Shown piece after piece: positions 9,905-29,129 of a stretch of 64,000 nt of DNA. The stretch's first letter is position 1, and each line of letters opens with the position of its first letter. This stretch comes from a bacterium. GTDB lineage: Bacteria > Orphanbacterota > Orphanbacteria > JBJXGV01. Position numbers and translations under genes: made by a program. Under the pieces are notes generated by a model, which saw only the letters and a list, made by a program, of their open reading frames with translations, searched no databases and had not been told where the DNA came from. The stretch covers positions 19,326-83,325 of the forward strand of contig JBJXGV010000063.1 of assembly GCA_046160485.1 (NCBI GenBank), read 5' to 3'.

Positions 9905-11026
9905 ATGGCGACGCTCCGCACCGAAGAGATGACGATGAACATGGGGCCGCACCATCCGTCGACGCACGGTGTGTTGCGCTTCATCCTGAAGACCGACGGC
10001 GAAATCGTTCACGAGTGTTTGCCCGACGTCGGTTACTTGCATCGTTCGATCGAGAAGATCGGCGAGCTGATGACGTACACGGGATTCGTGCCGTACACCG
10101 ACCGTGTCGACTACGTCGCGTCGATGAATTCCAACCTGGCGTACTGCATGGCGGTCGAGAAGCTCGCGTCGATCGAGGTTCCGCGCCGAGCCGAGTTCCT
10201 GCGCGTGATGGTTTGCGAGCTCAACCGTATCTCGAGCCACTTGATCGCGGTCGGCGCGCTCGCGATGGACATCGGCGCTGTGACGCCGTTCCCGTACGCG
10301 CTGCGCGAGCGCGAGCGCATCAACGACCTGCTCGAGGCGATCTGCGGGGCGCGCCTCACCTACAACTACATCTGGATCGGCGGCGTGTCGTTCGATCTTC
10401 CGCCTGGCTGGCTCGAACGCGTCGGCGAGTTCGTGGCGTCGTTCGAGCGCATCATTCCCGAGTTCAACCGCCTCATCAGCGGCAACAAGATTTTCGTCAA
10501 TCGGATGGGGAACGTTGCGGTGATCTCGCGCGAGATGGCGATCGATTACAGCCTCGTGGGCCCGAACCTCCGCGCTTCGGGGGTCGATTGGGATTTGCGC
10601 CGCGCCGAGCCCTACTCGATTTACCCGGAGCTCGAGTTCGCGGTGCCGCTCGGACACGGCGAGTACGGCACGGTCGGGGATTGCTACGACCGGTTCATCG
10701 TCCGCGTGCGCGAGATGGAGGAGAGCTGCAAGATTCTTCGCCAGTGCATCGCGAGTTTCCCGCACGACCAACCCGATTTCCGCGCGAAGGTCAAATCAGT
10801 GAAGCCGCCCGCGGGCGATGTCTACGTTCGCTCGGAGGCGCCGCGCGGCGAACACGGCTACTACCTCGTGAGCGATGGCACGGCGAAAGCGGCGCGCGTC
10901 AAGATTCGCACGGGCAGCTTTAGCGCCATGGCCGTCACCGAGGAACTGGCGGTCGGGTGCATGATCGCCGACGTGATCGCGATCATCGCAAGCCTCGATG
11001 TCGTCGCTCCGGAGATCGATCGATAG
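9905..11026 (+). CDS. nuoD: NADH-quinone oxidoreductase subunit D
   Basis: ATG 3 nt after nuoC stop. 373 aa, MGPHHPSTHGVLR N-terminus, 49 kDa subunit. Confidence 0.9.
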   Translation: MATLRTEEMTMNMGPHHPSTHGVLRFILKTDGEIVHECLPDVGYLHRSIEKIGELMTYTGFVPYTDRVDYVASMNSNLAYCMAVEKLASIEVPRRAEFLRVMVCELNRISSHLIAVGALAMDIGAVTPFPYALRERERINDLLEAICGARLTYNYIWIGGVSFDLPPGWLERVGEFVASFERIIPEFNRLISGNKIFVNRMGNVAVISREMAIDYSLVGPNLRASGVDWDLRRAEPYSIYPELEFAVPLGHGEYGTVGDCYDRFIVRVREMEESCKILRQCIASFPHDQPDFRAKVKSVKPPAGDVYVRSEAPRGEHGYYLVSDGTAKAARVKIRTGSFSAMAVTEELAVGCMIADVIAIIASLDVVAPEIDR

Positions 11027-11029
11027 CCG

Positions 11030-12226
11030 ATGAGAGCATTCCTCGATAGCATCGTCGCCCGCCTCGGCATCGTCGATCCGACGACGGTGCTCTTCGTGTA
11101 CCTCGTCGGCATGGTCATCTTCTGCGGCGTCGTCTTGATGCTCTTCGTGGCGCCGTTCGCGGGCATCACGAGTTACGTCGAGCGCCGCATCGCGGCGCGC
11201 ATGCAGTCGCGCGTCGGCCCGAATCGCGTCGGCCCGCACGGCGTGCTGCAGTGGCTCGCGGACGGCGTGAAATGCATCCTCAAGGAAGATTTGATCCCCG
11301 ACGACGCGGACAAGCCGCTCTTTCGTCTCGCGCCCTATCTTGTCTTCATCGGTATGTTCGGCGCGTTCGTCGTGTTGCCGTTCGGCTCGCGCCTCGTCAT
11401 CGCCGACCTCGACGTCGGCTTCTTCTATCTGCTCGCGATGTCGTCGCTCGTGTCGGTGGGGCTCATCATGGCGGGGTGGGCGTCCAATAATAAGTGGTCG
11501 CTCCTCGGCGGCATGCGCGCGGCGGCGCAAATCGTCTCGTACGAGATTCCGGCGGGGATGGCGATCCTCACGGTCGTTCTCTTCGCGGGCTCGATGAGCG
11601 TACAAGGCGTCATCGGCGCTCAGGGTTGGTCGCCGCACACGTGGGTCATGTTCCAGAATCCGTTTCTTTTCGCCGCGTACTTCGTCTTCTTCGCCGCCGC
11701 GCTCGCCGAAGGGAACCGCACGCCGTTCGACATCCCGGAAGCCGAGTCAGAACTCGTCGCGGGCTACAACACCGAATACAGCGGCATGCGCTTCGCGCTC
11801 TTCTTCCTCGCGGAGTGGGCGAACCTCTACGTAATCGGCGCGGTGTCGGCCGCCGCGTTCATGGGCGGCTGGCAGGTGCCGCCGGGAATTCCCGAGGTGA
11901 TTCGCCCCGTCGCCGAACTCCTCACGTTCTTCGCGAAGTCGCTCATCGGTGTTTTCTTCGCGATCTGGATTCGCTGGACGTATCCGCGGTTGCGCGTCGA
12001 TCAAATGATGAGCGTCTGCTGGAAGTATCTCGTGCCGATTTCGTTTCTCAACGTCGTCGGAACCGCGATCTGGATGATGATCTTTCCTCAGGGGCAGATT
12101 CCCGCGCTCGCGGCGAGCATCCTGATGGTCGTTCTGACGATCGCGATCCTCGTCCTGTTCGCGCGCAAGGTCGTCGCGAATCTTCGCGCGGTCGGCGGGC
12201 CGCTCAGCTTCAATCCTTTCGTATGA
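11030..12226 (+). CDS. nuoH: NADH-quinone oxidoreductase subunit H
   Basis: 398 aa polytopic protein. RVGPNRVGP, GWASNNKW, EGNRTPFD motifs. Directly follows nuoD. Confidence 0.9.
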   Translation: MRAFLDSIVARLGIVDPTTVLFVYLVGMVIFCGVVLMLFVAPFAGITSYVERRIAARMQSRVGPNRVGPHGVLQWLADGVKCILKEDLIPDDADKPLFRLAPYLVFIGMFGAFVVLPFGSRLVIADLDVGFFYLLAMSSLVSVGLIMAGWASNNKWSLLGGMRAAAQIVSYEIPAGMAILTVVLFAGSMSVQGVIGAQGWSPHTWVMFQNPFLFAAYFVFFAAALAEGNRTPFDIPEAESELVAGYNTEYSGMRFALFFLAEWANLYVIGAVSAAAFMGGWQVPPGIPEVIRPVAELLTFFAKSLIGVFFAIWIRWTYPRLRVDQMMSVCWKYLVPISFLNVVGTAIWMMIFPQGQIPALAASILMVVLTIAILVLFARKVVANLRAVGGPLSFNPFV

Positions 12227-12239
12227 CGGGAGCGCGCGC

Positions 12240-12908
12240 GTGATCACGACCTACGTCGGCAACATCCGCGAAACCTGCTCGACGCTTTTCGAGGGAATGG
12301 CCGTCACGTTTTCGTATCTCTTCCGGCCGCCGATCACGACGCAGTATCCAGATCGTATGCCGACTTCCGTGCAAGACACGCTTCCCGATCGCTACCGCGG
12401 CCATCTCTATGTTCATCTCGACACCTGCATCTCGTGTCTGCTGTGCGAGAAGGCGTGCCCGATCGAGTGCATCAAGATCGAAGACGTCCGCATCGAGAAG
12501 ATCATGATCACCGCGGCCGACGGAAAGCCGACGCCGAAGGTGAAGGAGCCGACGCTCTTCAACATCAACATGTACAAGTGCATGTACTGCGGGCTCTGCG
12601 TCGATCCGTGCCCGACGGGCGCGATTCGCATGACGAAGGAATTCGAGGGGACGACGGAGAACATTCAGAATCTGCACTTCCGTTTCGTTACGCCGGATCG
12701 CAAAACGATGGCCGTGCGTCTCGGTGAGGAGCAGGAGCGCAAGGCGGCGGAGAAGAAGGCGGCGCACGCCGCGCCGGCGGCCGCGGCCCCCGCCGCGCCC
12801 GCCGCGACGGCGACCGCCGCACCCGCCCCGGCGGCAACCGCGACCGAAGCGCCTCCGGCGCCGCCGACGCCTCCCGCGGCGGACTCACCCCCGGCGACAG
12901 AGGCATAG
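12240..12908 (+). CDS. nuoI: NADH-quinone oxidoreductase subunit I with Ala/Pro-rich C-terminal tail
   Basis: Two CxxCxxCxxxCP 4Fe-4S motifs (CISCLLCEKACP, CMYCGLCVDPCP). About 60-aa low-complexity A/P/T tail. Confidence 0.85.
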   Translation: MITTYVGNIRETCSTLFEGMAVTFSYLFRPPITTQYPDRMPTSVQDTLPDRYRGHLYVHLDTCISCLLCEKACPIECIKIEDVRIEKIMITAADGKPTPKVKEPTLFNINMYKCMYCGLCVDPCPTGAIRMTKEFEGTTENIQNLHFRFVTPDRKTMAVRLGEEQERKAAEKKAAHAAPAAAAPAAPAATATAAPAPAATATEAPPAPPTPPAADSPPATEA

Positions 12909-12910
12909 CA

Positions 12911-13417
12911 ATGGACCTTAAGCCCCTCTTCTTCTACCTCTTCGCGGCGATCACGATCATTCCGGCGTTCATGGTCGTCTTCTCGCGCAACCTCGTGCAC
13001 TCTGCGTTCGCGCTCCTCTTCACGCTTCTCGGAATGGCGGCGCTCTACGTCTTGCTCGGCGCGGATTTCCTCGGCATGACGCAGGTGCTCGTCTACGTCG
13101 GCGGCATTCTCATACTTCTTGTCTTCGGCGTTATGTTCACGCAGCGCATCTACGATCTGAAGGCGCGCACGAACGACTTCTTCAATCTGCCGCTCGGCGT
13201 CATCATCGGCGCGATCACGTTCTTCCTGCTCTACTTCGGCATCGGCCTAGCGGTCCCGTGGAAGCTGGTCGCGAATCCCGAGATCAAGCCGACAGCGTCC
13301 GCGCTTGGCGAACTCCTGCTGACGCGATACCTCCTGCCGTTCGAAGTGATCTCGATTCTTCTGCTCGTGGTTCTCGTCGGCGCCGTATTGGTCGCGAAGA
13401 AGGAGCAGCCGGAATGA
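12911..13417 (+). CDS. nuoJ: NADH-quinone oxidoreductase subunit J
   Basis: 168 aa, 5 TM. Confidence 0.85.
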   Translation: MDLKPLFFYLFAAITIIPAFMVVFSRNLVHSAFALLFTLLGMAALYVLLGADFLGMTQVLVYVGGILILLVFGVMFTQRIYDLKARTNDFFNLPLGVIIGAITFFLLYFGIGLAVPWKLVANPEIKPTASALGELLLTRYLLPFEVISILLLVVLVGAVLVAKKEQPE

Positions 13418-13734
13418 TCGGCCTGCCTCACTATCTCTTCGTCAGCTCGCTTCTCGCGGCGCTTGGCATCATCGCGATCACGACGCGGCGCAACGCCGTC
13501 GCGATCCTCATGGGGATCGAGCTCTTGCTCAACGCCGCGGCGCTTAACTTCATCGCGTTCTCGCACTACGTCGTGCCGGCCACTCCGGGCGGCGCGCTCG
13601 ACGGCCAGCTCTTCGCGATCTTCATCATCGTGCTCGCCGCCGCGGAAGCGACGGTCGCGCTCGCCATCATCATCGCGATCTATCACAAGCTCCGGTCGAT
13701 CAACGCCGACGAGCTCGTGCAGATGAAGAACTGA
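13414..13734 (+). CDS. nuoK: NADH-quinone oxidoreductase subunit K
   Basis: ATGA overlap with nuoJ stop. 106 aa, 3 TM. Confidence 0.85.
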   Translation: MIGLPHYLFVSSLLAALGIIAITTRRNAVAILMGIELLLNAAALNFIAFSHYVVPATPGGALDGQLFAIFIIVLAAAEATVALAIIIAIYHKLRSINADELVQMKN

Positions 13735-16016
13735 TGCACTTCACCGAACTCGACATCATCAAGTGGATCGTGATCCTCCCGCTTCTCGGGGCGATCGTAA
13801 ACGGCTTCTTCGGGAAGGCGCTCACCGCTCGCTTCGGGAACAAGCCGGTCTCGATCATCGGCTGCGGCGTCGTGCTCGCGTCGTTCGCCCTCTCGCTCAC
13901 CGTATTCGCGCGGCTGCTCGGCGTCGAAGGCCGCGTCCTCATCGATCATCTCTATACGTGGTTCGATGTCGGCGGCTTCCGCCCCGAAGTGACGTTCCTC
14001 GTCGACTCGCTCTCGGTCGTGATGATCCTCGTGGTCACGGGCGTCGGGTCGCTCATTCACATCTACTCGACCGGCTACATGTCGCACGACCACGGCTACT
14101 ACCGGTACTTCGCGTACCTCAACCTCTTCACGTTCTCGATGCTCACGCTCGTTCTCGGCGACAATCTCCTCCTGATGTTCGTGGGCTGGGAGGGCGTCGG
14201 GCTCTGCTCGTATCTGTTGATCGGGTTCTGGTTCACCGATCGCGAAAAAGCCGTCGCCGGCATGAAGGCGTTCATCACGAACCGCATCGGCGACCTCGGA
14301 TTCGTTGTCGGGCTCTTCGCGCTCTGGTGGTATCTCGGGCGCGAGGGTTATCACACGGTCAACTTCTACGCGCTCGCTCAGATCATCGGCGCGCTCGACG
14401 GCCAAACGATCTTCGGGATCTCGGTCGCCACGTTCGTCGCTCTCATGTTCTTCGTCGGCGCCACGGGGAAGTCGGCGCAGATTCCGCTCTACGTGTGGCT
14501 GCCGGACGCCATGGCCGGCCCGACGCCGGTTTCGGCGCTCATCCACGCCGCGACGATGGTGACCGCGGGCGTCTACATGATCGGGCGCATGAACTTCCTC
14601 TACACGATGTCGCCCACCGCGCTCACCGTGGTGGCGGTCGTCGGTGCGGTCACGGCGCTCTTCGCGGCGACGATTGGCCTGGCGCAAACCGACATCAAGA
14701 AGGTGCTCGCGTACTCCACGGTGTCGCAACTCGGCTACATGTTCCTCGGCATGGGTGTCGCCGCGTATTCGGCCGGCATCTTCCACCTGATGACACACGC
14801 GTTCTTCAAAGCGTGCCTCTTCCTCGGATCGGGAAGCGTGATCCACGGAATGGGCGGCGAGCAGGACATGCGCAAGATGGGCGGCCTGAAGAAGTACATG
14901 CCGACGACCTACAAGACGATGCTTGTCTCGACGCTCGCGATCGCGGGGATCTTTCCGCTCGCCGGTTTCTTCTCGAAGGACGAAATCCTCTGGAAGGCGT
15001 GGTCGTCCGCGCACGGCAGTCCGCTTCTCTGGTTCATCGGTGTCGCGGCCGCGGGGATGACCGCGTTCTACATGTTCCGCCTCATCTTCATGACATTCTG
15101 GGGCGAGTGTCGCGCCGACGAACACACGAAGCATCACATTCACGAGTCGCCGCGCTCGATGACGATCCCGCTCATCGTGCTCGCGGGGCTAGCGGTCGTC
15201 GGTGGCTGGATCGGGATTCCTGGCGCCCTCGGCGGCGGAAACCAGTTCCATCACTGGCTCGCGCCGGTGCTCTCGCCGAGCGAGGCGCACGGCCCGACGC
15301 TCCTCGATTGGGATCTCGCGTCGGAGACGGCGAAGTTTTCGGCGGCCGTGGACGCCGAGGGTGCGAGCCACATGGTGAGCCTTTCGTACATCGGAGGGTC
15401 GGGTGAGGTGACGCATATCTCCGGTGAGGTGCCGCACGAGGCGGTTCACGGCGACGCGGGTCAGGGCGGCGATCACGCTGCCGACGCCGCGCATGGCGAG
15501 TCGCCGCCCGGCGGCGAACACGGCGGCGAACACGCGGCCGGCCACGCGCACGACCCGATGGAGTACGTGCTCATGATCGTCTCGCTCGCAATCGCCGGCA
15601 CGGGCATTTTCCTCGCGCACCGCTTCTACGTGAAGGACCGCGGCGCCCCGGCGCGCATCACGGCGCGCATGCCGCGCCTCGCCGCACTCGTCGCCGACAA
15701 GTACCGCGTCGACGAACTCTACGGCGCCACCGCGATCGGCGGCACGCTCTCGCTCTCACGGTTCCTCTCGGCGTTCGACGGCTTCGTCATCGATGGCCTC
15801 GTGAATCTCTCGGCATACCTGACACGCGTCGTCTCGATGCTCAACGGTTGGTTCGACAGCATGTTCGTCGACGGCGCCGTCAACGGTGTCGGCCGGTTGA
15901 TCGCTTATCTCGGAGCGCGCGCTCGCAGTCTTCAAACGGGCGTCATCCAATACAACGTCGTCGGCGTCTTCGCCGGCGTTCTGCTCATGGTGCTCGTCCT
16001 CGTCGTCTTTCGCTAA
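13734..16016 (+). CDS. nuoL: NADH-quinone oxidoreductase subunit L (760 aa, with internal His/Gly/Glu-rich insertion)
   Basis: TGATG overlap with nuoK. Antiporter-like core. About 100 aa more than typical NuoL. Confidence 0.85.
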   Translation: MHFTELDIIKWIVILPLLGAIVNGFFGKALTARFGNKPVSIIGCGVVLASFALSLTVFARLLGVEGRVLIDHLYTWFDVGGFRPEVTFLVDSLSVVMILVVTGVGSLIHIYSTGYMSHDHGYYRYFAYLNLFTFSMLTLVLGDNLLLMFVGWEGVGLCSYLLIGFWFTDREKAVAGMKAFITNRIGDLGFVVGLFALWWYLGREGYHTVNFYALAQIIGALDGQTIFGISVATFVALMFFVGATGKSAQIPLYVWLPDAMAGPTPVSALIHAATMVTAGVYMIGRMNFLYTMSPTALTVVAVVGAVTALFAATIGLAQTDIKKVLAYSTVSQLGYMFLGMGVAAYSAGIFHLMTHAFFKACLFLGSGSVIHGMGGEQDMRKMGGLKKYMPTTYKTMLVSTLAIAGIFPLAGFFSKDEILWKAWSSAHGSPLLWFIGVAAAGMTAFYMFRLIFMTFWGECRADEHTKHHIHESPRSMTIPLIVLAGLAVVGGWIGIPGALGGGNQFHHWLAPVLSPSEAHGPTLLDWDLASETAKFSAAVDAEGASHMVSLSYIGGSGEVTHISGEVPHEAVHGDAGQGGDHAADAAHGESPPGGEHGGEHAAGHAHDPMEYVLMIVSLAIAGTGIFLAHRFYVKDRGAPARITARMPRLAALVADKYRVDELYGATAIGGTLSLSRFLSAFDGFVIDGLVNLSAYLTRVVSMLNGWFDSMFVDGAVNGVGRLIAYLGARARSLQTGVIQYNVVGVFAGVLLMVLVLVVFR

Positions 16017-16050
16017 TGCGCGAACGGCGGGCCTGGAGGAAGGAATCGCA

Positions 16051-17556
16051 ATGTCCGATCTCTTGACGCTCATCACGTTCACCCCGCTCGTCGGGATGGT
16101 TGCGCTTCTCTTCGTCCCGAAGGAACGCGTTAGCGCGATTCGCTGGCTCTCGGTCGTGGCCACGCTCGTGCCGCTGCTTCTCTCCGTTTACCTCTACATG
16201 AATTTCGATAGCACGAAGGCCGGGATCAACGACCCGACGTCGTTCCAATTCGTCGTTCAAAAAGATTGGATCCCGTCGTTCAACATTCAGTACTACATGG
16301 GCATCGACGGCCTCTCGGTGAGCATGGTGCTTCTCACCGCGCTTCTCTCGTTCATCTGCATCTTCGCGTCGTTCGGCATCGAGAAGGGCGTGAAGGGCTA
16401 CTTCATGATGTTCCTCCTGCTCGAAACCGGAATGATGGGCGTCTTCTGCGCGCTCGACTTCTTCCTCTTCTACGTTTTCTGGGAGTTGATGCTCCTGCCG
16501 ATGTACTTCCTCATCGGAATCTGGGGCGGGCCGCGCAAAGTCTACGCGGCGATCAAGTTCTTCCTCTACACGCTCTTCGGCTCCGTTCTGATGCTCATCG
16601 CGATGCTCGCGTTCTACTTCAAGGCGGGCGGCTCTTTCGACATGGTCGCGATGATGGGAAAGGGGCTCGACGCCGGAACCATCAAGCTGTTCGGAATGCT
16701 CCTCCCGTTCGGGCAGCTCATGTTCATCGCGCTCTTCATCGGCTTCGCGATCAAGGTGCCGGTCTTCCCGTTCCACACGTGGCTTCCGGACGCGCACGTC
16801 GAGGCGCCCACCGCGATCTCCGTCATCCTTGCCGGCGTTCTTCTGAAGATGGGGACGTACGGTCTCATGCGGATCTCGTTCCCGATTCTGCCGGAGGCGA
16901 CGCAATGGTTCGCGCCCGCGCTCGCCGTGCTTGCGGTCATCAACATCGTCTATGGCGCGCTCTGCGCGATGGCGCAGAAGGATTTCAAGAAGCTGATCGC
17001 GTACTCCTCCGTGAGCCACATGGGATTCGTCATGCTCGGCATGGCGTCCGGCACCGTGCAGGGGATGAACGGCGCGATCTTCCAGATGTTCAATCACGGC
17101 ACGATCACCGCGATGCTCTTCCTTCTCGTCGGCGTCGTCTACGATCGCGCGCACCATCGCGAGATCGCGGGCTTCGGCGGCCTCATGTCCCGAATGCCCG
17201 TCTACGCCACGTTCACGACGATCGCGTTCTTCGCGGCGATCGGGCTTCCCGGGCTTTCCGGTTTCATCAGCGAGGCGCTCGTACTGCTCGGCGGCTTCAA
17301 GGCGTTCCCGGCGATCACGATTCTTTCCGCGACGGGTATCGTGCTCGGCGCCGGCTACATGCTCTGGACGTTCCAGCGCGTCTTCCTCGGCCCGCTCAAC
17401 GAGAAGTACGCCGGCATCGCCGAGATCAACCGCCGCGAGATCTTCACGCTCGTACCTCTGACGATTCTTACGATCGTGCTCGGCTTCTATCCGCATCCGG
17501 TGCTCGGACTCTTCGGCGCGTCGGTCGACAAGCTCGTCGCCGTGGTCTGGGGCTAA
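16051..17556 (+). CDS. nuoM: NADH-quinone oxidoreductase subunit M
   Basis: 501 aa antiporter-like. GGAGG RBS. Confidence 0.9.
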   Translation: MSDLLTLITFTPLVGMVALLFVPKERVSAIRWLSVVATLVPLLLSVYLYMNFDSTKAGINDPTSFQFVVQKDWIPSFNIQYYMGIDGLSVSMVLLTALLSFICIFASFGIEKGVKGYFMMFLLLETGMMGVFCALDFFLFYVFWELMLLPMYFLIGIWGGPRKVYAAIKFFLYTLFGSVLMLIAMLAFYFKAGGSFDMVAMMGKGLDAGTIKLFGMLLPFGQLMFIALFIGFAIKVPVFPFHTWLPDAHVEAPTAISVILAGVLLKMGTYGLMRISFPILPEATQWFAPALAVLAVINIVYGALCAMAQKDFKKLIAYSSVSHMGFVMLGMASGTVQGMNGAIFQMFNHGTITAMLFLLVGVVYDRAHHREIAGFGGLMSRMPVYATFTTIAFFAAIGLPGLSGFISEALVLLGGFKAFPAITILSATGIVLGAGYMLWTFQRVFLGPLNEKYAGIAEINRREIFTLVPLTILTIVLGFYPHPVLGLFGASVDKLVAVVWG

Positions 17557-17571
17557 GGCGAGGCGGCGCGC

Positions 17572-19071
17572 ATGGGCAACCTCGATAGCCTGAAGTTCTT
17601 CTGGCCGGAGATTATCGTCGCGCTGGCGTTTATCGCGACGCTCCTCTTCGATGTCGCGACGCGCGGCAAGCGGCCGACCGGCAGCGCGGCGATCGCAATC
17701 GCCGGGCTTGCGCTCGCGGTCGTCGCGAGCATCCCGCTCCTCTCCGCGCCGCCGACGCTTCTTTTCTCGGGAATGATCGCGCTCGATCCCTTCGGCGTTT
17801 TCATCAAGATCTTCGCGGCCGTAGCGTCGATCGTCGTAATCCTCTTCTCGATGGGCTACAAGGAACTCTCGGCGCGGTTCCAGGGCGAGTATTTGGCGAC
17901 GCTCTTAGCGACGATCCTCGGCGCGATGCTCTTCGCGTCGTCGACGAACCTCGTGATGATCTATCTCACACTCGAGATGCTGTCGCTTCCGGCCTACGTG
18001 CTCGCGGGGTTCCTGCGCGGCGATTCGCGTTCGAGCGAAGCCGGCATCAAGTACGCGGTCTTCGGCGCGGCGGCGAGCGGCGCGATGATCTTCGGGTTCT
18101 CGTTCCTCTACGGCATGACCGGGAGCCTTGACCTCTTCGCCATTCGCGACGCATTCCTTACGCGCGGCATCCCGCCGGTCGCGCTCATCGTTCCGACGAT
18201 CCTCGTCTTCGCCGGCTTCGCGTACAAAATCTCCGCGGCGCCGTTCCACATGTGGACGCCCGACGTCTACGAGGGCGCATCGACCCCCGTCACCGCGTTC
18301 TTCTCGGTTGTCCCGAAGGCCGCCGGTTTCGCCGCGATGCTCCGCTTCTTCCTTTCGTCGATGACGACCGACACGCCGAACGGCCTCGTCGCGATCGACG
18401 GCATCGACTGGCCGTTTCTCATCGCGATCGCGTCCGTCTTCACGATGACACTCGGCAATCTCGCGTCTCTGCGGCAGAACAACGTTAAGCGTCTTCTCGC
18501 ATACTCGAGCATCGCGCACGCCGGCTACATGATGATGGGGCTCGTTCTCCTCACCGGCGAAGGGATCAAGGCGGTTCTCTTCTATCTCATCGTCTACGCG
18601 CTCATGAATCTCGGCGCGTTCCTCGTCGTGATCGCGCTCTCTAACGGAAAACCGCGCGAAGAGATCGAAGAGTTCCGGGGCCTCGGCTGGCGCATGCCCG
18701 CGACCGCCGCGGCGATGGCGATCTTCCTCTTCTCGCTGACGGGGCTTCCGCCATTCGCGGGGTTCATCGGCAAGGTCTATCTCTTCAAGGCCGTCATCGC
18801 GAAGGAGTTTTACTGGCTCGCGGTCATCGGCGTTCTGAATAGCGTCGTCTCGCTCTACTATTACGTCCGCATCGTTAAGGTGATGTACCTCGACTCGCCC
18901 TCCGATGCCGCCCCCGCGGGCGGACTCGCGCCGATGCCCGCCGTCGCCGTGTCGCGGCTTCACAGCGTGCTGCTCGTGCTCCTCGCGGTGCCGTCGGTCT
19001 ACTTCGGTATTCGCTTCGGGCTGGTCGACGCGGTCTCCGAACTCGGCCGCTCGATCTTCCTCGGCCGCTGA
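17572..19071 (+). CDS. nuoN: NADH-quinone oxidoreductase subunit N
   Basis: 499 aa antiporter-like. Confidence 0.9.
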   Translation: MGNLDSLKFFWPEIIVALAFIATLLFDVATRGKRPTGSAAIAIAGLALAVVASIPLLSAPPTLLFSGMIALDPFGVFIKIFAAVASIVVILFSMGYKELSARFQGEYLATLLATILGAMLFASSTNLVMIYLTLEMLSLPAYVLAGFLRGDSRSSEAGIKYAVFGAAASGAMIFGFSFLYGMTGSLDLFAIRDAFLTRGIPPVALIVPTILVFAGFAYKISAAPFHMWTPDVYEGASTPVTAFFSVVPKAAGFAAMLRFFLSSMTTDTPNGLVAIDGIDWPFLIAIASVFTMTLGNLASLRQNNVKRLLAYSSIAHAGYMMMGLVLLTGEGIKAVLFYLIVYALMNLGAFLVVIALSNGKPREEIEEFRGLGWRMPATAAAMAIFLFSLTGLPPFAGFIGKVYLFKAVIAKEFYWLAVIGVLNSVVSLYYYVRIVKVMYLDSPSDAAPAGGLAPMPAVAVSRLHSVLLVLLAVPSVYFGIRFGLVDAVSELGRSIFLGR

Positions 19072-19397: not shown

Positions 19398-19973
19398 ATG
19401 AGAGACGGCGCCGAAAGCCTCCGCATCGGAGAGCTGGCCGCGCGCTCGGGCAAGACGATCCGCGCGCTCCACCTTTACGAGCAGATGGGGCTGCTGCCGG
19501 CCGCCGAACGGTCCGAGTGCGGCTACCGCCTCTTCCGCAGCGACGCGCCCGTCCGAATCGAGTGGATCGACGCGCTTCAATCGCTCGGCTTGTCCCTCGC
19601 CGAGATTCGCGAGTTCGATCTCGAGTTCGAGCGCCGGACGCTGGGGCCGCAGGCCGCCGCGCTCGCGCGGAAGCGATTCAAGGAGAAACTCGTCGAAACG
19701 CGGCAGGCGATCGAACGGCTCCGAATGCTCGAATCGGAGTTGTGCGCGGCGCTCGAATACCTCGAGGCATGCCGCGGCTGCATTCCGCCTCAGCCCAGCG
19801 CCGTCTGCCCAGAGTGCGACGTGCCGCGCGAGAAGTCAGAGAAGCCGATTTTGATGAAGGGGTTCTATTCGAAGCCGGGCCCGCCGGCGACGCGGAGCGC
19901 AGCCGCGAAGAGTTCGACGGCCGGCTTTCGTATCGCGCAACGGCGGCGCCGCGCGCGCAAAGGAGCTTCATGA
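19398..19973 (+). CDS. MerR family transcriptional regulator with Cys-rich C-terminus
   Basis: ATG with GGTGAGG RBS. HTH LRIGELAARSGKTIRALHLYEQMGLL. C-terminal C-x8-C-x2-C-x9-C-x2-C. The ORF-track 5' extension from 19218 is probably not translated. Confidence 0.75.
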   Translation: MRDGAESLRIGELAARSGKTIRALHLYEQMGLLPAAERSECGYRLFRSDAPVRIEWIDALQSLGLSLAEIREFDLEFERRTLGPQAAALARKRFKEKLVETRQAIERLRMLESELCAALEYLEACRGCIPPQPSAVCPECDVPREKSEKPILMKGFYSKPGPPATRSAAAKSSTAGFRIAQRRRRARKGAS

Positions 19974-21022
19974 GCACCGCAACAAGCGAAGACCTGCTCA
20001 AGGAATTGAGCCGGATTACGGACACCTATCACAACGAGAACATCGTCGCGCTCGGGATCGTCAAAGAGGCGCGGGTCGAGGGCGCGCGCGCGCGCGTCCA
20101 CATCGAGCTGCCGACGCCGGCGTATCCGCTGCGCGAACGCTTCGAGGCCGAAGCACGAGCCCGCGCGGGCGCTCTCGCCGGCGTTGCGTCGGTCGACATC
20201 GAGTTCACGGCATCGGTCGCCACGCCGCCCGTCCTCCTCGGCAACGCGATGCCCGGCGTGAAGCACCCGATCGCCGTCGCCAGCGGCAAGGGAGGCGTCG
20301 GCAAGTCGACGGTCGCGGTCAATCTCGCCGTGGCTCTCGCCCAGTACGGCGCCGCCGTCGGCCTTCTCGACGCGGACATCTACGGTCCGTCGATTCCGAT
20401 CATGCTCGGCGAACGCCGGCAGCCGAAGCCCTCGCCCTCCGGAAAGATTCTCCCGCTCGAGCGCTACGGCGTTCGGATGATGTCGATCGGTTTCATCGCG
20501 ACCGGCGACACGCCGGTTATTTGGCGCGGCCCGCTCGTCTCGCGGATGCTGCAGCAGTTCCTCATGCAAGTGGAGTGGGGCGAACTCGATTACCTCATCA
20601 TCGATATGCCGCCGGGCACCGGTGACGCGCAACTCACCCTCTCGCAGCAGTGCCCGCTCTCGGGCGCTGTGGTCGTCACGACGCCGCAGGAAGTCGCGCT
20701 CGAAGATGTCTACCGAGCCGTGCAGATGTTCGGCCAGGTACGCGTACCGATTCTCGGAATCGTCGAGAACATGAGCGGGTTCGCATGCCCGCACTGCGGC
20801 GAGGTGACCTCCGTGTTCCGTTCAGGCGGCGGCGCCGCGGCCGCGGAGAAGTCGGGCGTCCCGCTCCTCGGGCGCATCCCGCTCGATCCGGCAATCTGCG
20901 ACGGCGGCGATGCCGGCGCGCCGATCGTGGCCGCACACCCCGAGAGTCCGCAATCCGCCGGCTTCCGCAAGATCGCCGGCGAAGTCGCCGCGCAGCTCGC
21001 CGTTATGTCGCGCGCCGGTTAA
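19970..21022 (+). CDS. apbC: Fe-S cluster carrier ATPase Mrp/ApbC
   Basis: ATGA overlap with the MerR stop. N-terminal DUF59/MIP18-like domain, Walker A GKGGVGKST, CPHCGE CxxC. Confidence 0.9.
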   Translation: MSTATSEDLLKELSRITDTYHNENIVALGIVKEARVEGARARVHIELPTPAYPLRERFEAEARARAGALAGVASVDIEFTASVATPPVLLGNAMPGVKHPIAVASGKGGVGKSTVAVNLAVALAQYGAAVGLLDADIYGPSIPIMLGERRQPKPSPSGKILPLERYGVRMMSIGFIATGDTPVIWRGPLVSRMLQQFLMQVEWGELDYLIIDMPPGTGDAQLTLSQQCPLSGAVVVTTPQEVALEDVYRAVQMFGQVRVPILGIVENMSGFACPHCGEVTSVFRSGGGAAAAEKSGVPLLGRIPLDPAICDGGDAGAPIVAAHPESPQSAGFRKIAGEVAAQLAVMSRAG

Positions 21023-21897: not shown

Positions 21898-22012
21898 CAA
21901 AAAAACACTAATTCTCGCCGTCTAATCGCGTGTGCTAGACTCGACGCGATTTCGAACTGTTTCTGCAACGCAACTCGTCTTCGAAAACCGAACCGGCTGT
22001 GCAGGCGGCCGC

Positions 22013-23932
22013 ATGAGGTCCCCGATGCGAACGAGCGCGACTGCAACTCAGTGCTTTTGCGCCCCGACGCGACGCCGCGCTCTTTGGCGCACTGCGTTCT
22101 GCGTGGGTAGCGCCTCCCTTTGCGCGCTCGCAACGCCACTGCCCACCCTCGCGCTGAACTTCACCAACGTCACGTCTGCGGCCGGATTCATCTACGCCCA
22201 CGGCTACAGCGGCCCTGTCGGGGAGGCGCGCCTCTCGGCCGGCGGCGTCGCGGTCGGCGACTACGATCGGGACGGTTGGGAAGACGTTTACGTCGTGCGC
22301 GGCAATATCGGGCCCAACCTGCTCTTTCGCAATCTCGGCAACGGCACGTTCCAGGAGGTCGGCGCGTCCGCCGGCGTCAACATCAGCGGCGCGTACGGGT
22401 CTGGCCCCACGTTCGGCGACTACGACGGCGACGGCTGGCTCGACTTGATCATTGGCGGGGCGGATCCGACGCAGCCGCGTCTCTTCCGCAACTTGGGCAC
22501 CGGCGCGTTCGCTGATGTCACCCCGACCTGCGGCATCAGCACACTGATGAACACCTTCTCGTGCACCTACGGCGACTACGACATCGACGGCGACCTCGAT
22601 CTCTTCCTGACGCACTGGGGACCGATCGGAAGCCCCGACCATCTTTGGCGCAACAACGGCAACGGATCCTTCACGTCGGTCGACTGGGACGCTGGCCTTT
22701 CGATCCTCGGAGACGAAGGCGCCGACTACTCGTACACGGGAAACTTCGCGGACATCAACGACGATGGTTTTCCGGATTTGCTCGTCGCGGCGGACTTCGA
22801 GCGCTCGAAGGTATTCATCAACGACGGCGACGGGACGTTCACGAACGTGACCACCGGCGTGATCTCCGACGAAAACGGAATGGGCGGCGCGGTCGGCGAC
22901 TACGATAACGACGGCGACCTCGATTGGTTCGTATCGAGCATTTGGGATCCGAACGGCGTGCCGGAGGGGAGCTGGGGCATCACCGGCAACCGGCTCTACC
23001 GTAACGCGGGCGGCGGCGTTTTCCAGGATGTCACCACGGCGACGGGCGTGCGCCAGGGATACTGGGGCTGGGGCTCGAGTTTCGCCGACTTCAACAACGA
23101 CGGGCACCTCGATCTCGTTCACGTGAACGGATGGAACGCGCTCGAATTCGAGCGCGACTCGACGCGGGTTTTTATCTCCGGCGGTGACGCGACGTTCACC
23201 GAGCAGTCGTACGTGCTTGGCGTGCGCGACGTCGGGCAGGGGCGCGGCGTGGCGTGTTTCGATTACGACCGCGACGGCGATCTCGACATTTTCATCGCGA
23301 ACAACGGTTCGGCGCCGTTGTTCTATCGAAACGACGGCGGCAACGCGCTCAAGTATCTGAGCGTCCGCCTCGCGGGGCCGTCGCCGAATACCGAGGGAAT
23401 CGGCGCGAGGGTTTTCGTGACGGCGGGCGGCGTCACGCAGATGCGCGAGATTCGCTGCGGCAGCAACTACGTCTCCCAGGATCCGGCGGTCGCGCACTTC
23501 GGACTCGGTTCCGCGACGCTCGTCAGCGAGCTTCGCGTCGAGTGGCCGGATGGCGTGACGACGGTGCTCAACGGCCTCGCGCCGAATCAACGCCTCGTGC
23601 TCGATCAAAACGTAACCGGCGTTTCTCCGGGCTCCGGTTCCACCCCTTTGGGATCGGCGTTTGAACTCGTCGGAGGTGCGCCCAACCCCTTCGGCGCCTC
23701 GACCACGATCCGGTTCCGGTTGCCGCACCGCGCCGACGTTTCGCTTCGCGTCTATTCGCTCGCCGGCCGGCATGTGGCGACGCTCGTCGACGAGTCGCGC
23801 GAGCCCGGCGAGCACGGCGTCGACTGGGACGGACGCGATGGCGCGGGTCGCCTTGCCGCCGCCGGGCCGTACGTCGTGCGCCTCGAGTCTGCTGCGGGCG
23901 CCGTCTCAACACGCCTCATCCTCGCTCGCTAG
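22013..23932 (+). CDS. secreted FG-GAP/VCBS-type repeat protein (CRTAC1/ASPIC-UnbV-like) with C-terminal T9SS-CTD / FlgD-Ig-like domain
   Basis: Signal peptide. Repeated GDYDxDGxxD calcium-binding propeller motifs. C-terminal about 85 aa (PNPF...WDGRD...) homologous to the C-terminus of the 61270..63492 protein. Start is uncertain (22013 or 22025). Confidence 0.75.
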   Translation: MRSPMRTSATATQCFCAPTRRRALWRTAFCVGSASLCALATPLPTLALNFTNVTSAAGFIYAHGYSGPVGEARLSAGGVAVGDYDRDGWEDVYVVRGNIGPNLLFRNLGNGTFQEVGASAGVNISGAYGSGPTFGDYDGDGWLDLIIGGADPTQPRLFRNLGTGAFADVTPTCGISTLMNTFSCTYGDYDIDGDLDLFLTHWGPIGSPDHLWRNNGNGSFTSVDWDAGLSILGDEGADYSYTGNFADINDDGFPDLLVAADFERSKVFINDGDGTFTNVTTGVISDENGMGGAVGDYDNDGDLDWFVSSIWDPNGVPEGSWGITGNRLYRNAGGGVFQDVTTATGVRQGYWGWGSSFADFNNDGHLDLVHVNGWNALEFERDSTRVFISGGDATFTEQSYVLGVRDVGQGRGVACFDYDRDGDLDIFIANNGSAPLFYRNDGGNALKYLSVRLAGPSPNTEGIGARVFVTAGGVTQMREIRCGSNYVSQDPAVAHFGLGSATLVSELRVEWPDGVTTVLNGLAPNQRLVLDQNVTGVSPGSGSTPLGSAFELVGGAPNPFGASTTIRFRLPHRADVSLRVYSLAGRHVATLVDESREPGEHGVDWDGRDGAGRLAAAGPYVVRLESAAGAVSTRLILAR

Positions 23933-23949: not shown

Positions 23950-24735
23950 TTGTCCGCGCGGCGCCGAGTCGAAGTTTCCGCAGGCGTCATCGAACGCGGC
24001 GGACGGATTCTCATCGCGCAGCGGCGTCCCGGCGATCACCTCGCACTCAACTGGGAATTCCCAGGGGGCAAGCGAAAGCATGGCGAGAGTTGGGAGGACT
24101 GCCTTCGCCGCGAGCTCCTCGAGGAGATCGGCGTCGAGGTGGCGGTGGGGGCATGGCTCGACGCGGTGACGCACGCGTACGACGACCGCGATGTCCATCT
24201 GCGTTTCTTTCGATGCCGAATCACGCGCGGAACGCCGGCGTCTCTCGACTGCCACGACGTTCGCTGGGTCGCGCCGTGTGAGCTTGCGAATTTCGAATTC
24301 CCCGAGGCAGACGCGGCACTCGTGCGCTGGCTTTCGGCGTCACGCACACAGACGAGCGTCCCGGCGAGCTTGACGATCGAGCCGCGGGGCGGCGAATCGG
24401 CGGCGGTGGCGGAAGCGGTCGACGTGCGATGGGGAACGCAGCTCGACGAAGCCATGGCGCGTTGCGGTGTCCGGTCGCGAATGGGTTGCGGGGCCGGGCT
24501 GTGCGGCGCATGCGCGGTCGATGTCGTCGCGGGCGCCGCCAATCTCACGCCGCCGACCGCGGAGGAGCGCGCGTGGTTCGCGCCCGACGCGGCGAGCACG
24601 ACCCGGCCGAGCGATCCGCGCGATCCGCGAACAGCGTCCGAGGTCGCGCGTGTCGGCCGGCGCCTTGCGTGTCAGGCGCGCATCACAGGGAACATCGTCC
24701 TTGCGCTTAAGGAGCGCTCGCTTCTTCACTTCTAG
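23950..24735 (+). CDS. Nudix hydrolase (MutT-like) fused to C-terminal [2Fe-2S] ferredoxin-like domain
   Basis: Nudix box GGKRKHGESWEDCLRRELLEEIGV. C-terminal CGAGLCGACAV...LACQARI plant-type ferredoxin Cys pattern. TTG start at 23950 is the ORF-track start; start is uncertain. Confidence 0.7.
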   Translation: MSARRRVEVSAGVIERGGRILIAQRRPGDHLALNWEFPGGKRKHGESWEDCLRRELLEEIGVEVAVGAWLDAVTHAYDDRDVHLRFFRCRITRGTPASLDCHDVRWVAPCELANFEFPEADAALVRWLSASRTQTSVPASLTIEPRGGESAAVAEAVDVRWGTQLDEAMARCGVRSRMGCGAGLCGACAVDVVAGAANLTPPTAEERAWFAPDAASTTRPSDPRDPRTASEVARVGRRLACQARITGNIVLALKERSLLHF

Positions 24736-26954: not shown

Positions 26955-27036
26955 CGCCGCGACGGTAGAAAACGAGCCGGTCGCCTCGCAAGGCTCCCGG
27001 CTCGATCAATCGCGTTCGTGAATCCCGGAGCGCGCG

Positions 27037-27363
27037 CTATGCGCTAAACGAACTCCCGCAGCCGCATTTCCCGCTCGAGTTCGGATTCTCGATCTTGAAT
27101 CCCGCGCCGTGAAGGCCTTCGACGTAGTCGATCTTCGAACCGATCAGGTAGTTGAGGCTCATCGGATCGACGACCAGGCTGAAGCCGAACGTCTCTTGCG
27201 GATAGACCTCGTCATCGTCCTTCAGGTCGTCGAACGCGAAACCGTACTGGAATCCCGCGCACCCGCCGCCTTCGACGTAGATGCGGAGATTCCGCTGATC
27301 GGGCTTCTCTTCGTCGAGGATTTCCTTGATCTTCAGAGCGGCCGTTTCGGTGATCATCACCAT
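27037..27363 (-). CDS. A-type Fe-S cluster insertion/carrier protein (IscA/ErpA/SufA family)
   Basis: 108 aa. GGGCAGFQY and C-terminal GKCGCGSSF. GAAGGTGG RBS. The ORF-track 262-aa form has an Arg-rich spurious extension. Confidence 0.85.
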   Translation of the reverse strand: MVMITETAALKIKEILDEEKPDQRNLRIYVEGGGCAGFQYGFAFDDLKDDDEVYPQETFGFSLVVDPMSLNYLIGSKIDYVEGLHGAGFKIENPNSSGKCGCGSSFSA

Positions 27364-27398
27364 GCTTATCCACCTTCTTTCTTCAAGATGCCCCGCGC

Positions 27399-28361
27399 CT
27401 ACTGCGACGCGTGAATCTGGTAGCTCCAACCGAGGTCGCGCGGGAACTCCTGCGCTCTCGGCACAATGATCGCCTCTTTGATGCAGACTTGCTCGCAAAG
27501 TTTGCAAGAGACGCACTTTTTCTCGTCGACCACCGCGAGCTTCGTCACGAACGAAAGCGGATCGTTCGTGTCGACGAGCGAGATGCAATCGAACGGGCAA
27601 ACATCGACGCAGTACGCGCAGCCCGTACAGAGTTCGTCGATCACGACCGCCTTCGGGATTTCCTTCGCCTTGATGCGCTCGACGAGCACGGAGCGCTGAT
27701 CGACGATGCAGTCGTACGGGCAGTACACACCGCAGACGCTGCAATTGATGCAGAGGTTCGGGTCGATGATGTAGCGCTCTTTCTTTAGCCCCGTGATCGC
27801 TTTCGTCGGGCACTTGATGTCGCACACGCCGCAGCCGACGCAGTTCTCGAGGATGTAATGCGCGTCCCAGAGCGGCGTTTCGTTCAGCACGATTCCCGCC
27901 GGCAGAGCGCGGATGACGAGTACGTCGCCGATGTAGCGGTGGAAGTACTCGCCGATCTCCTCCTCGAACGCGAAGCGCGTCGTAAACGTGCGCGGGAAAC
28001 TGAGCGTCCCGCCGCAGAGCGAGAGAATCTTTTCATCGTCCGGCGCCGTCGCGGAGACCTTGAGCACGCGACCCTCGACGAGTTCGATTTCGTACCTGTA
28101 CGCGGGCATTCTGTCGGGCAGCCCGAGCATGAACTTCTGCGGGCAATTCGGAATTTTCTCGGGGAACCAGAGGCGGATCATGTACTCGTTGCCGCTGCGC
28201 TCGATCGTGTGGACGAGCCCGTAGCGCTTGTTGCGCTCCGTCAACTCCTCGACGTCATCCTTGTGGCGCGCCCACGCCAGCTCCCATCCCGGCGCGCCGT
28301 CGTCGAGTGCGGTCCCAGCGTCGCCGGCTACCGCGGCATTCTTGGTCGCATCGTCGGCCAT
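27399..28361 (-). CDS. ferredoxin-domain protein: unassigned (possibly Hsp20/alpha-crystallin-like) N-terminal domain + four CxxCxxCxxxCP 4Fe-4S motifs
   Basis: CVGCGVCDIKCP, CINCSVCGVYCP, CTGCAYCVDVCP, CVSCKLCEQVC. The N-terminal 160 aa is not matched to a known catalytic family. Confidence 0.75.
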   Translation of the reverse strand: MADDATKNAAVAGDAGTALDDGAPGWELAWARHKDDVEELTERNKRYGLVHTIERSGNEYMIRLWFPEKIPNCPQKFMLGLPDRMPAYRYEIELVEGRVLKVSATAPDDEKILSLCGGTLSFPRTFTTRFAFEEEIGEYFHRYIGDVLVIRALPAGIVLNETPLWDAHYILENCVGCGVCDIKCPTKAITGLKKERYIIDPNLCINCSVCGVYCPYDCIVDQRSVLVERIKAKEIPKAVVIDELCTGCAYCVDVCPFDCISLVDTNDPLSFVTKLAVVDEKKCVSCKLCEQVCIKEAIIVPRAQEFPRDLGWSYQIHASQ

Positions 28362-28501
28362 TCTGCGAAGACTCCCCCCGAGAGCGCTACTGGCGAGTGT
28401 TTAGATCTTGATCGATTGTCGGATGAGAACGCGTATTCCACGAGAGCGCCGTGATGATATCGGATCGGTATGGGGCGGTCAACCGAACGTCGGGACGCCC
28501 C

Positions 28502-28598: not shown

Positions 28599-29129
28599 AT
28601 GCACAGTGAATTGGAAGCCCTCATACCGGAGTTCCGCGCGATCTCGGACGCGTCTCTTCGCACGAAATGCCTCGATGTTTGGGAAGAGGCGCTGAAGCGA
28701 GGCGGTTTCTCGCTGTCCGACCTGAAGCGAATGCCGTTTACGATTCTCGTCGACGGCGTGCAGATTTCGTTCGTGGAACACGTCCGCACGGTCGCGCGCC
28801 TCTGTATCTCGATGGCGGATATCCTCGTCGATGCGTACGGCACGCGCGTGAAGATCTCGAAGGACCACCTCGTGGCGGGCGCGATGCTCGCCGACGTCGG
28901 CAAGGTCATGGAGTACGAGGAGAAGGACGGCAAGTTCGTGAAGAGCCGTCACGGAAAGTATCTTCGCCATCCGTTCACCGGCGTCGGGCTCGCGTTCGCG
29001 AAGGGCGTTCCCGACGAGGTGATGCACGTGATCGCCGTGCACTCGAAGGAGGGCGACCACTTCAAGCGTTCGCCGGAAGCCATCATTTTTCATCACGCCG
29101 ATTTCACGGACTTCGAGCTGGTGCAGTAG
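28599..29129 (+). CDS. HD-domain phosphohydrolase
   Basis: 176 aa. H...HLVAGAMLADVGK...H...HHAD pattern of the HD superfamily. AAAAGGAG RBS. Confidence 0.7.
   Translation: MHSELEALIPEFRAISDASLRTKCLDVWEEALKRGGFSLSDLKRMPFTILVDGVQISFVEHVRTVARLCISMADILVDAYGTRVKISKDHLVAGAMLADVGKVMEYEEKDGKFVKSRHGKYLRHPFTGVGLAFAKGVPDEVMHVIAVHSKEGDHFKRSPEAIIFHHADFTDFELVQ

Follow-up and report, generated by a model that had tools for sequence, protein, structure and literature searches.

The 64,000-nucleotide stretch of bacterial DNA analysed here (the window; positions 19,326 to 83,325 of contig JBJXGV010000063.1) encodes a 320-residue protein in which a divergent alpha-crystallin domain, referred to below as domain X, is fused to two dicluster ferredoxin domains, and directly downstream lies the gene for ErpA, an iron-sulfur (Fe-S) cluster carrier. 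Structural prediction and profile comparison support the view that domain X has the alpha-crystallin fold and is a remote homologue of the small heat-shock proteins (sHSPs), outside the curated HSP20 family. The sHSPs are defined by this domain and are seen as stand-alone holdases, and no description of an alpha-crystallin/HSP20-ferredoxin fusion was found in the searchable literature. With a probability of about 45%, we propose that the fusion product is a four-cluster electron-transfer protein that uses its crystallin fold for assembly or docking. It represents a divergent form of a known fold family in a new and widespread fusion, not a categorically new system. The fusion gene and the parts of its product are:

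27399..28361, minus strand: fusion gene, 320 aa, ATG start, stop codon counted in (from the list of open reading frames)
28293..28361, minus strand: residues 1-23, low-complexity N-terminus, predicted disordered (model confidence; poor conservation)
27888..28292, minus strand: residues 24-158, domain X, divergent alpha-crystallin (HSP20-fold) domain (AlphaFold2, Foldseek, hhalign)
27687..27866, minus strand: residues 166-225, first 2x[4Fe-4S] ferredoxin domain (Pfam Fer4, Fer4_21, Fer4_7; invariant Cys)
27453..27656, minus strand: residues 236-303, second 2x[4Fe-4S] ferredoxin domain (Pfam Fer4_7 and Fer4_9 on 245-298; invariant Cys)
27402..27452, minus strand: residues 304-320, conserved C-terminal tail (81-sequence alignment)

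The gene is real and not a chance open reading frame (ORF), because GC content at third codon positions is 0.85 and homologues are found at family-profile E-values down to 1e-164; the GC pattern over the codon positions is also that of genes (the window has 65% GC). Residues 1-20 of the product have a predicted local distance difference test score (pLDDT) of 43-52 in the full-length model and show little conservation in alignments. Domain X then begins with two conserved N-terminal helices (VxGWExxW and ERxxRYG), which are followed by a 7-strand beta-sandwich. Its core of ~115 residues (query residues 37-152) bears the signature ERxRRYG-x-VY...Y-x-x-R-L-E-F-P-R-x-x-P...G-L-P-D-E-M-P-D-Y...L-x-V-x-G...D in the N part and R-x-L...S-F-P-x-x-F...R-Y-x-x-K-x-L-E-V-x-L-x-K in the C part, with W26, R46, G48, P71, G80, Y88 and F122-P123 invariant among 81 sequences. 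Since the family alignments contain no conserved Cys or His in this domain, domain X is not itself a cluster site.

Pfam recognises nothing in residues 1-165 of the fusion protein, no NCBIfam model covers domain X, and searches of Pfam, NCBIfam and PDB sequences with the single sequence and with a 40-sequence profile gave no match to it. A word-index homologue search returned three close fragments only. An exhaustive phmmer search of 1.84 billion representatives yielded 99 proteins at E<=1e-3 (best 1.7e-20; 28-43% identity), each a representative at 50% identity; together with the window protein, they form the set of 100 members scanned for other domains. Fer4 domains are present on 24 of these 100 proteins, and the remaining Pfam domains consist of four single-protein matches to unrelated families plus a repeat protein, P0051 (apparently spurious). 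A profile search of a 5.8-billion-protein set found 109 domain-X members, named 'hypothetical protein' or 'ferredoxin', whose precomputed Pfam assignments are of ferredoxin types, save one unrelated PF10396 (P0190).

The AlphaFold2 model of residues 20-165, built from a 102-sequence alignment, has a pLDDT of 92.3 and a predicted template-modelling score (pTM) of 0.84, and comprises two N-terminal helices, seven strands and two short helices. Compared with the PDB by Foldseek, it gave 56 matches at E<=1e-3, of which ranks 1-31 are taken up entirely by the alpha-crystallin domains of sHSPs (E 1.8e-5 to 2.4e-4, probability 1.00, template-modelling (TM) score by target 0.46-0.71, identity 11-15%). 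They include Sulfolobus Hsp14.x, wheat HSP16.9, M. tuberculosis and M. marinum sHSPs, pea HSP17.7, Deinococcus Hsp17.7 and yeast Hsp26; the first CS domain, USP19 CS2, appears at rank 32. The sHSP matches recur for the N half of the full-length model. Moreover, an hhalign comparison of the 40-sequence domain-X profile with an alignment of seven sHSPs, all confirmed as PF00011 by Pfam, gave a probability of 94.2% (E 1.1e-7) over 86 columns. The two profiles are in register from beta3 to beta9, and the 15-residue insertion of domain X (vP..P.k...gLPdeMPdY) falls in the beta3-beta4 loop.

Domain X stands outside the curated HSP20 family because PF00011 matches none of the 100 members at E<=0.001; the fusion protein itself has no PF00011 match at E<=1. 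At these respective thresholds, the Pfam models CS and ArsA_HSP20 likewise match neither the 100 members nor the window protein. The C-terminal IxI/V tail of sHSPs is also absent: stand-alone members end a few residues past the last strand (...LEVxLxK), and in the fusion, domain X runs straight into the ferredoxin.

In the C-terminal half, Pfam finds four Fer4-type stretches within residues 166-300, with Fer4 (69 bits, cut-off 21.1), Fer4_7 and Fer4_21 all above their cut-offs. The first domain contains C174xxC177xxC180xxxC184P and C204xxC207xxC210xxxC214P; the second contains C245xxC248xxC251xxxC255P and C283xxC286xxC289xxxC293-I, which are separated by a hairpin insert of 27 residues. All 16 motif Cys are invariant in the 81-sequence family alignment. 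Taking as a polyferredoxin any protein with at least two dicluster domains of two CxxCxxCxxxC(P) motifs each, this half is one, and these motifs predict up to four [4Fe-4S] clusters per chain, both in number and in type. Its best structural matches, in a Foldseek comparison of the full-length model, are the FwdF polyferredoxin (5T5I/5T61) and HdrA.

NCBIfam gave ferredoxin-type matches only, all under the family cut-offs. The nearest models are rnfB TIGR01944 (58.9 bits, cut-off 68.7) and the VhuB polyferredoxin (58.2 bits, cut-off 600), and the protein also lies below the FwdF cut-off of 375. An identity as RnfB was considered and rejected, given that TIGR01944 is under its cut-off, the equivalog models are far below theirs, and there are no rnf genes among the annotated neighbours. 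The JGI label 'electron transport complex protein RnfB', carried by homologues, is an over-annotation.

A preliminary description of this locus, made from the sequence, is confirmed here in its coordinates, both ORFs lying on the minus strand, and the peptides that it quoted (YMIRLWFPE, YEIELVEGRVLKV, FPRTFTTRFAF and GDVLVIRALP) are all found in the translation. Its suggestion of an alpha-crystallin-like N-domain is upheld by two approaches that agree, the AlphaFold2/Foldseek comparison (31 sHSPs as top matches) and hhalign (94.2%); the Pfam and profile check brought up no unrelated known family, as Pfam is blank and the profile points to sHSPs. The two dicluster domains that it recognised are borne out by Fer4 families above their cut-offs and by the 16 invariant Cys. 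It had also counted four CxxCxxCxxxCP motifs. Four Cys motifs are indeed present, but three of them end in CP (C174-C184, C204-C214 and C245-C255), and the fourth (C283-C293) reads CVSCKLCEQVCIK, that is CVSCKLCEQVC-I, a CxxCxxCxxxCI motif from which the Pro is missing.

The full-length AlphaFold2 model, from 81 sequences, reaches a pLDDT of 90.0 and a pTM of 0.81, only residues 1-14 and 315-320 being below 50. Judged by this pTM, the three modules would be packed in a defined mutual arrangement. Among the PDB chains matched by the full-length model (Foldseek listing), no description combines a crystallin fold with a ferredoxin. Past the last cluster motif, the conserved tail follows the pattern F-P-x-x-I/L-G-W-S-Y/F-Q (F P x D L G W S Y Q in the window), with G311 and S313 invariant in the 81 sequences. 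The tail is left without a confident place in the monomer model (pLDDT 83 and then 47 for the last two blocks), and its sequence could be that of a docking peptide.

Domain X occurs in several architectures. In (a), that of the window protein and of the Acidobacteriota type (318-357 aa), X precedes two dicluster ferredoxin domains; in (b), the commonest (~380-390 aa, Planctomycetota), a single-cluster Fer4_13 domain stands before X and the two dicluster domains. The others are (c) Fer4_13 followed by X (~230 aa), (d) a YfhL-like 2[4Fe-4S] ferredoxin, a Pro/Ala-rich linker and hydrophobic segments followed by X, (e) hydrophobic segments followed by X, and (f) X alone (110-160 aa). X has thus been joined to ferredoxins in at least three different ways. 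Since the same polyferredoxin module also stands alone in Thermoanaerobaculia, with 54-58% identity to residues 159-303, X and the polyferredoxin are independent evolutionary modules, and the fusion brought two separate units together.

The stand-alone polyferredoxin, of ~155 aa, is encoded in a chemosensory-type gene cluster in Thermoanaerobaculia metagenome-assembled genomes (MAGs), at 5528-11442 of locus L077 and 7112-11468 of locus L078. The order in L077 is CheR, CheB, a GAF protein, a response regulator, a 447-aa protein without a Pfam match, the polyferredoxin and a HEAT/PBS-lyase-repeat protein; the GAF and HEAT neighbours recur in L078. This is an unexpected setting for a four-cluster ferredoxin.

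With each GTDB species represented by a single genome, a pattern scan located full-length orthologues, 40-48% identical, at 69 loci: 58 labelled Planctomycetota, five Acidobacteriota (including Polarisedimenticolia), one Saprospiraceae and five unclassified. The ferredoxin half alone was found at 11 more loci in the same scan. The best 80 genome matches are all MAGs. In a profile search at E<=1e-40, the family comprises at least 335 clusters (90% identity), whose names are '4Fe-4S binding protein', '4Fe-4S dicluster domain-containing protein', 'ferredoxin' and 'electron transport complex protein RnfB'. The locus labelled Saprospiraceae (L015, on CBDCVZ010000010.1, 8.1 Mb) encodes an orthologue that shares 45% identity with the window protein; GC content is 67% in the 20.9-kb stretch around it. 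Every other classified carrier belongs to Planctomycetota or Acidobacteriota, and the label or binning of L015 may be wrong.

We consider the following model, which the models and sequence patterns suggest and which we hold tentatively. The product of the fusion gene would be a cytoplasmic Fe-S protein made of a crystallin beta-sandwich and a tandem pair of 2x[4Fe-4S] ferredoxin domains, which would pack on the sandwich to give a single compact body. Up to four [4Fe-4S] clusters could form a short electron wire, as in polyferredoxins such as FwdF and the C-terminus of RnfB. The role of the crystallin-fold domain, in line with the structural strengths of this fold, would be self-association or docking: it would keep the ferredoxin module within a dimer or oligomer, or attached to a partner, and would not act as a general heat-shock holdase. 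ErpA is a late-acting A-type carrier that inserts [4Fe-4S] clusters. Its co-expression might assist the loading of the fusion protein, each chain of which would require 16 Fe and 16 S, in this lineage only and not across the family.

The proposal of electron transfer and docking is made because the cluster motifs are invariant, the C-terminal half is polyferredoxin-like in structure, X recurs in combination with ferredoxins and membrane anchors, X lacks ligand residues, and the modules are predicted to pack together. In particular, the occurrence of X with three ferredoxin types (N-terminal Fer4_13, YfhL-like dicluster and C-terminal polyferredoxin), behind transmembrane segments, or alone is what one would expect of an adaptor or assembly module that serves ferredoxins.

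The features surrounding the fusion gene in the window are:

28599-29129, divergent from the fusion gene: HD-domain protein (annotation)
28454..28482, minus strand: candidate sigma-70-like promoter TTGACC-17-TATCAT, ~93 nt upstream of the fusion-gene ATG (consensus scan)
upstream of the fusion-gene ATG, minus strand: Shine-Dalgarno-like run GGGGGGAG (sequence inspection)
27364..27398, minus strand: 35-nt intergenic spacer with the ribosome-binding site AAGGTGG before the erpA ATG (sequence)
27037..27363, minus strand: erpA, 108-aa A-type carrier, stop codon counted in (NCBIfam/Pfam)
26967..27004, minus strand: candidate terminator hairpin CGAGCCGG..GCCU-UGCG-AGGC..CCGGCUCG followed by UUUUCU (RNA fold)

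The true start of erpA is the ATG at 27363 (MVMITE...), so that the gene occupies the last third of the listed ORF 27037..27825. The preliminary description was right to see an A-type carrier here: the protein scores 136.2 bits against the ErpA equivalog NF010147 of NCBIfam (cut-off 117) and 66 bits against Pfam Fe-S_biosyn, has the three cluster-ligand Cys in the pattern C...CGC (GGGCAGFQY and KCGCGSSF), and is identical in sequence to NCBI MFN0151974.1, 'iron-sulfur cluster insertion protein ErpA'. The fusion gene and erpA probably form a bicistronic, co-transcribed unit, as judged from consensus and structure matches and because the 35-nt gap is without a terminator (a motif scan of the minus strand found no terminator-like site between the two genes). 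The promoter scan returned 1 site against 0.4 expected in shuffles, which makes it a consensus match only. The hairpin after erpA has 12 bp, is interrupted, and lies in the gap that separates erpA from a convergently oriented M24 peptidase gene; its region has a z-score of just -0.84 for a 77-nt stretch, and it is taken as a candidate terminator. At Rfam gathering thresholds, no RNA elements, heat-shock thermometers included, were detected in the window.

Fusion-then-ErpA pairs are found in five contigs of the window lineage (L001, L088/L089, L090 and L091; 74-83% identity), with gaps of 15-86 nt between the two genes across these relatives. A tblastn search of loci L001-L087 with the window ErpA (E<=1e-5) matched L001 solely, a 1.3-kb contig in which the fusion gene is present at 83% identity over 236 residues. 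In L088/L089, L090 and L091, whose orthologues are 74-78% identical, the gap is 15-26 nt and a neighbourhood of ~12 kb is collinear with the window. The order is sigma-70, hydrolase, aldolase, two hypotheticals, HD (uncalled in L090) and the fusion-ErpA pair, and then M24, SDR, NUDIX, sigma-70, Mrp/ApbC and MerR. Among the distant orthologues, none of the 69 loci has an ErpA homologue nearby (tblastn; flanks of up to 10 kb on each side, some contigs being shorter). The pairing with an A-type carrier, for which the preliminary description had set conserved synteny as a criterion, is thus confined to the window lineage, with no conserved synteny beyond it, and the idea of a functionally telling pair is not supported. 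The adjacency of erpA is lineage-specific and says little on the function of the family.

The neighbours of the distant orthologues are variable and unrelated genes of housekeeping or catabolic kind, among them those for class I LysRS, PolA, glucose/sorbosone dehydrogenase, a methyltransferase, a fucosidase and sigma factor fusions. No conserved partner gene was seen in hand-annotated representative loci of the 69 orthologues; an all-against-all ORF clustering at these loci was confounded by antisense ORFs in the high-GC DNA. Likewise, no genes for ferredoxins, Fe-S assembly or chaperones adjoin the stand-alone X and Fer4_13 plus X genes in the contexts examined. In four of the five Acidobacteriota loci, a 155-200-aa protein with a signal-peptide-like N-terminus is encoded directly upstream of the orthologue on the same strand. 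The copies are located as follows:

L007, 1778-2245: signal-peptide-like protein
L012, 9367-9921: signal-peptide-like protein
L009, 9274-9876: signal-peptide-like protein
L011: signal-peptide-like protein
L008: signal-peptide-like protein, ~1.6 kb upstream of the orthologue

These proteins share 31-57% identity among themselves, the two copies scanned (L007 and L012) have no Pfam match, and the protein is absent from the window and from the Planctomycetota loci. One orthologue, P0007 (L005), is directly downstream of a CsoS1D_N/BMC-T shell-like gene (L005 993-1625). A link with bacterial microcompartments (BMC) was rejected, as tblastn with PduA, the shell-like protein and the two proteins beside it detected no BMC gene at any other of ~90 loci or in the window; the case is a one-off.

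Other neighbours of the pair in the window are a membrane protein without a Pfam match, class II aldolase-like and alpha/beta hydrolase proteins, two sigma-70 paralogues, an SDR, a NUDIX-Fer2 fusion, an Mrp/ApbC-type ATPase and a MerR-family regulator. The Mrp/ApbC/NUBPL-type Fe-S carrier ATPase (~19970-21022, plus strand, within ORF 19517-21022; FeS_assembly_P and ParA, 340 bits) is ~6 kb from erpA and has the MerR-family regulator on one side and a sigma-70 paralogue on the other; its position is kept in the collinear relatives. The NUDIX-Fer2 fusion is a 261-aa ORF (23950-24735, plus strand) combining a MutT-like NUDIX domain (NUDIX_4/NUDIX) with a C-terminal [2Fe-2S] Fer2 domain. A NUDIX hydrolase carrying a plant-type ferredoxin domain is uncommon; the fusion is also called in the relative L088 (243 aa), and L090 has NUDIX alone (142 aa). 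Between the sigma-70 and NUDIX genes lies a 666-aa FG-GAP/ASPIC-UnbV/FlgD-Ig protein (21932-23932, plus strand), which looks like a lineage-specific insertion, there being no gene at that spot in the collinear L088 and L090. Further upstream, a run of same-strand ORFs (8886-19071, plus strand) resembles a nuo (NADH:quinone oxidoreductase) operon, with NuoL-, NuoM- and NuoN-type ORFs at 13734-16016, 16051-17556 and 17572-19071 (plus strand), and a CcmF/NrfE heme lyase gene is found at 48487-50514 (plus strand). The organism is accordingly respiratory.

Several observations weigh against an electron-transfer and docking role. The variable neighbourhoods are unusual for a dedicated electron carrier and resemble those of stress genes more, and no partner enzyme was found among the neighbourhoods of the 69 orthologues or of the stand-alone X genes. 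The beta5-beta7 loop makes the strand-swapped dimer in bacterial sHSPs. In domain X this loop is modelled as a short helix, and domain-X proteins have no IxI tail. As regards the operon, the promoter and the terminator are consensus matches only, and the position of erpA next to the fusion gene may be an inherited arrangement with no bearing on function, given that the relatives match the window in gene order over all ~12 kb.

A bolder conception, about which we are doubtful, is that X is an unrecognised, ferredoxin-specialised branch of the alpha-crystallins. Such proteins might form self-assembling multi-cluster oligomers, cages or chains whose wires lie in electron-transfer distance, with the IGWSYQ tail as an IxI-like anchor, or might be Fe-S-gated holdases responding to O2, reactive oxygen species (ROS) or iron status. 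If true, the branch in either form would add a new functional class to those of the sHSP fold.

It is unlikely, in our estimate, that the protein is a redox- or iron-sensing chaperone, in which the crystallin domain would keep its holdase role and four [4Fe-4S] clusters labile to O2 and ROS would serve as the switch, cluster loss unfolding or releasing the ferredoxin half and so exposing client-binding surfaces, as the zinc centre does in Hsp33. Such a role would accord with the remote homology to sHSPs, with the solitary position of the genes in variable, stress-gene-like contexts, with the stand-alone and membrane-anchored X proteins that have no Fe-S part, and with the precedent of DnaJ-Fer for joining a chaperone module to a ferredoxin (PMC3564930). 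However, the client-handling and oligomer hallmarks of sHSPs are missing or altered, there being no PF00011 match in the 100 members and no IxI tail, and the segment before the domain is conserved and helical, not a variable disordered arm. Moreover, the candidate promoter is sigma-70-like, the window has no heat-shock RNA element, and a structural role is more in keeping with the tight packing predicted between the crystallin domain and the ferredoxin half (pTM 0.81).

That the fusion gene directly adjoins erpA and is probably co-transcribed with it, both in the window and in five related contigs, and that an Mrp/ApbC/NUBPL-type gene lies 6 kb away and is collinear in the relatives, could point instead to an Fe-S reservoir or transfer partner of ErpA: the fusion protein would store or pass on clusters, its crystallin domain would hold apo-clients, and the two would form a module with the Mrp/ApbC ATPase. 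We judge this improbable. An A-type carrier is found at none of the 69 orthologue loci outside the lineage (flanks of up to 10 kb on each side), and the region-wide collinearity makes the adjacency uninformative. In addition, CxxCxxCxxxCP sites hold clusters tightly, and these ferredoxin-type sites are not known to be transfer sites, in contrast to those of A-type, NFU and U-type carriers.

Least probable of all is that the crystallin resemblance is not homology and that a generic beta-sandwich (CS/p23-like, Ig-like or other) merely superposes on sHSPs, a view to which the 11-15% identity, the TM-scores of 0.46-0.71, the CS domain at rank 32 and the failure of HMMER methods lend something, but the first 31 structural matches are all sHSPs, from archaea, bacteria, plants and yeast, the independent profile comparison (94.2%) is in register over beta3-beta9 and aligns the F-x-R/F...LP and 'nGvL-x-v-x-x-K' equivalents with SFPxxF... 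and K-x-L-E-V-x-L-x-K, and a CS match is no contradiction, because CS/p23 domains are placed together with alpha-crystallin domains in a single superfamily (HSP20-like chaperones).

The wider meaning of these findings is that a large, environmentally common protein group uses a cryptic alpha-crystallin fold in fixed combination with Fe-S electron carriers. Recognition of the domain gives proteins called '4Fe-4S binding protein', 'ferredoxin' or, wrongly, 'RnfB' a testable architecture, and the domain-X alignment is a seed for a new family model. For research on sHSPs, the family is an example from nature in which this fold serves as a scaffold or redox-linked module. The ErpA neighbour calls for caution, as a lineage-specific gene order unfit for inferring the function of the family.

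Among known systems, the sHSPs (PF00011; Sulfolobus Hsp14.x 4YLB/3VQM, wheat HSP16.9 1GME and M. jannaschii HSP16.5) share with domain X the same seven-strand beta-sandwich, a similar size and the long beta5-beta7 loop. Domain X differs from them in having no HMMER-level similarity, in its conserved ~15-residue beta3-beta4 insertion (P..P...GLPDEMPDY), in a conserved helical N-terminal segment (VxGWExxW, ERxxRYG) that replaces the variable arm, and in being covalently joined to ferredoxin domains or membrane anchors with no C-terminal IxI anchor. In CS/p23 and ArsA_HSP20 (PF17886) the fold is likewise reused as an interaction or assembly module outside the classical sHSPs, and CS is among the Foldseek matches; domain X, however, has no Pfam match to them, and sHSPs rank well above CS structurally.

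The C-terminal half resembles the polyferredoxins (FwdF 5T5I, MvhB/VhuB, the C-terminal domain of RnfB and the inserted ferredoxins of HdrA) in its tandem 2x[4Fe-4S] domains. The fusion is under all the NCBIfam cut-offs and is thus no member of these families, has no Rnf, hydrogenase or Fwd genes nearby, is predicted to hold four clusters as against the eight of FwdF, and contains a crystallin-fold domain, found in none of the matched polyferredoxin PDB chains. With respect to ErpA/IscA/SufA, the downstream gene encodes a bona fide and ordinary member, and only its position behind the fusion gene is unusual. DnaJ-Fer (CDJ3-5), of the green lineage and Thaumarchaeota, is a published fusion of a J-domain with a bacterial-type ferredoxin domain (PMC3564930). 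It links Hsp70 to a redox-active cluster. The window protein has an alpha-crystallin fold in place of the J-domain, two dicluster domains in place of one ferredoxin domain, and occurs in other organisms, and a sequence relationship between the two is not expected; nevertheless, with a module of a folding system joined to a [4Fe-4S] ferredoxin, DnaJ-Fer provides a conceptual precedent for the fusion protein.

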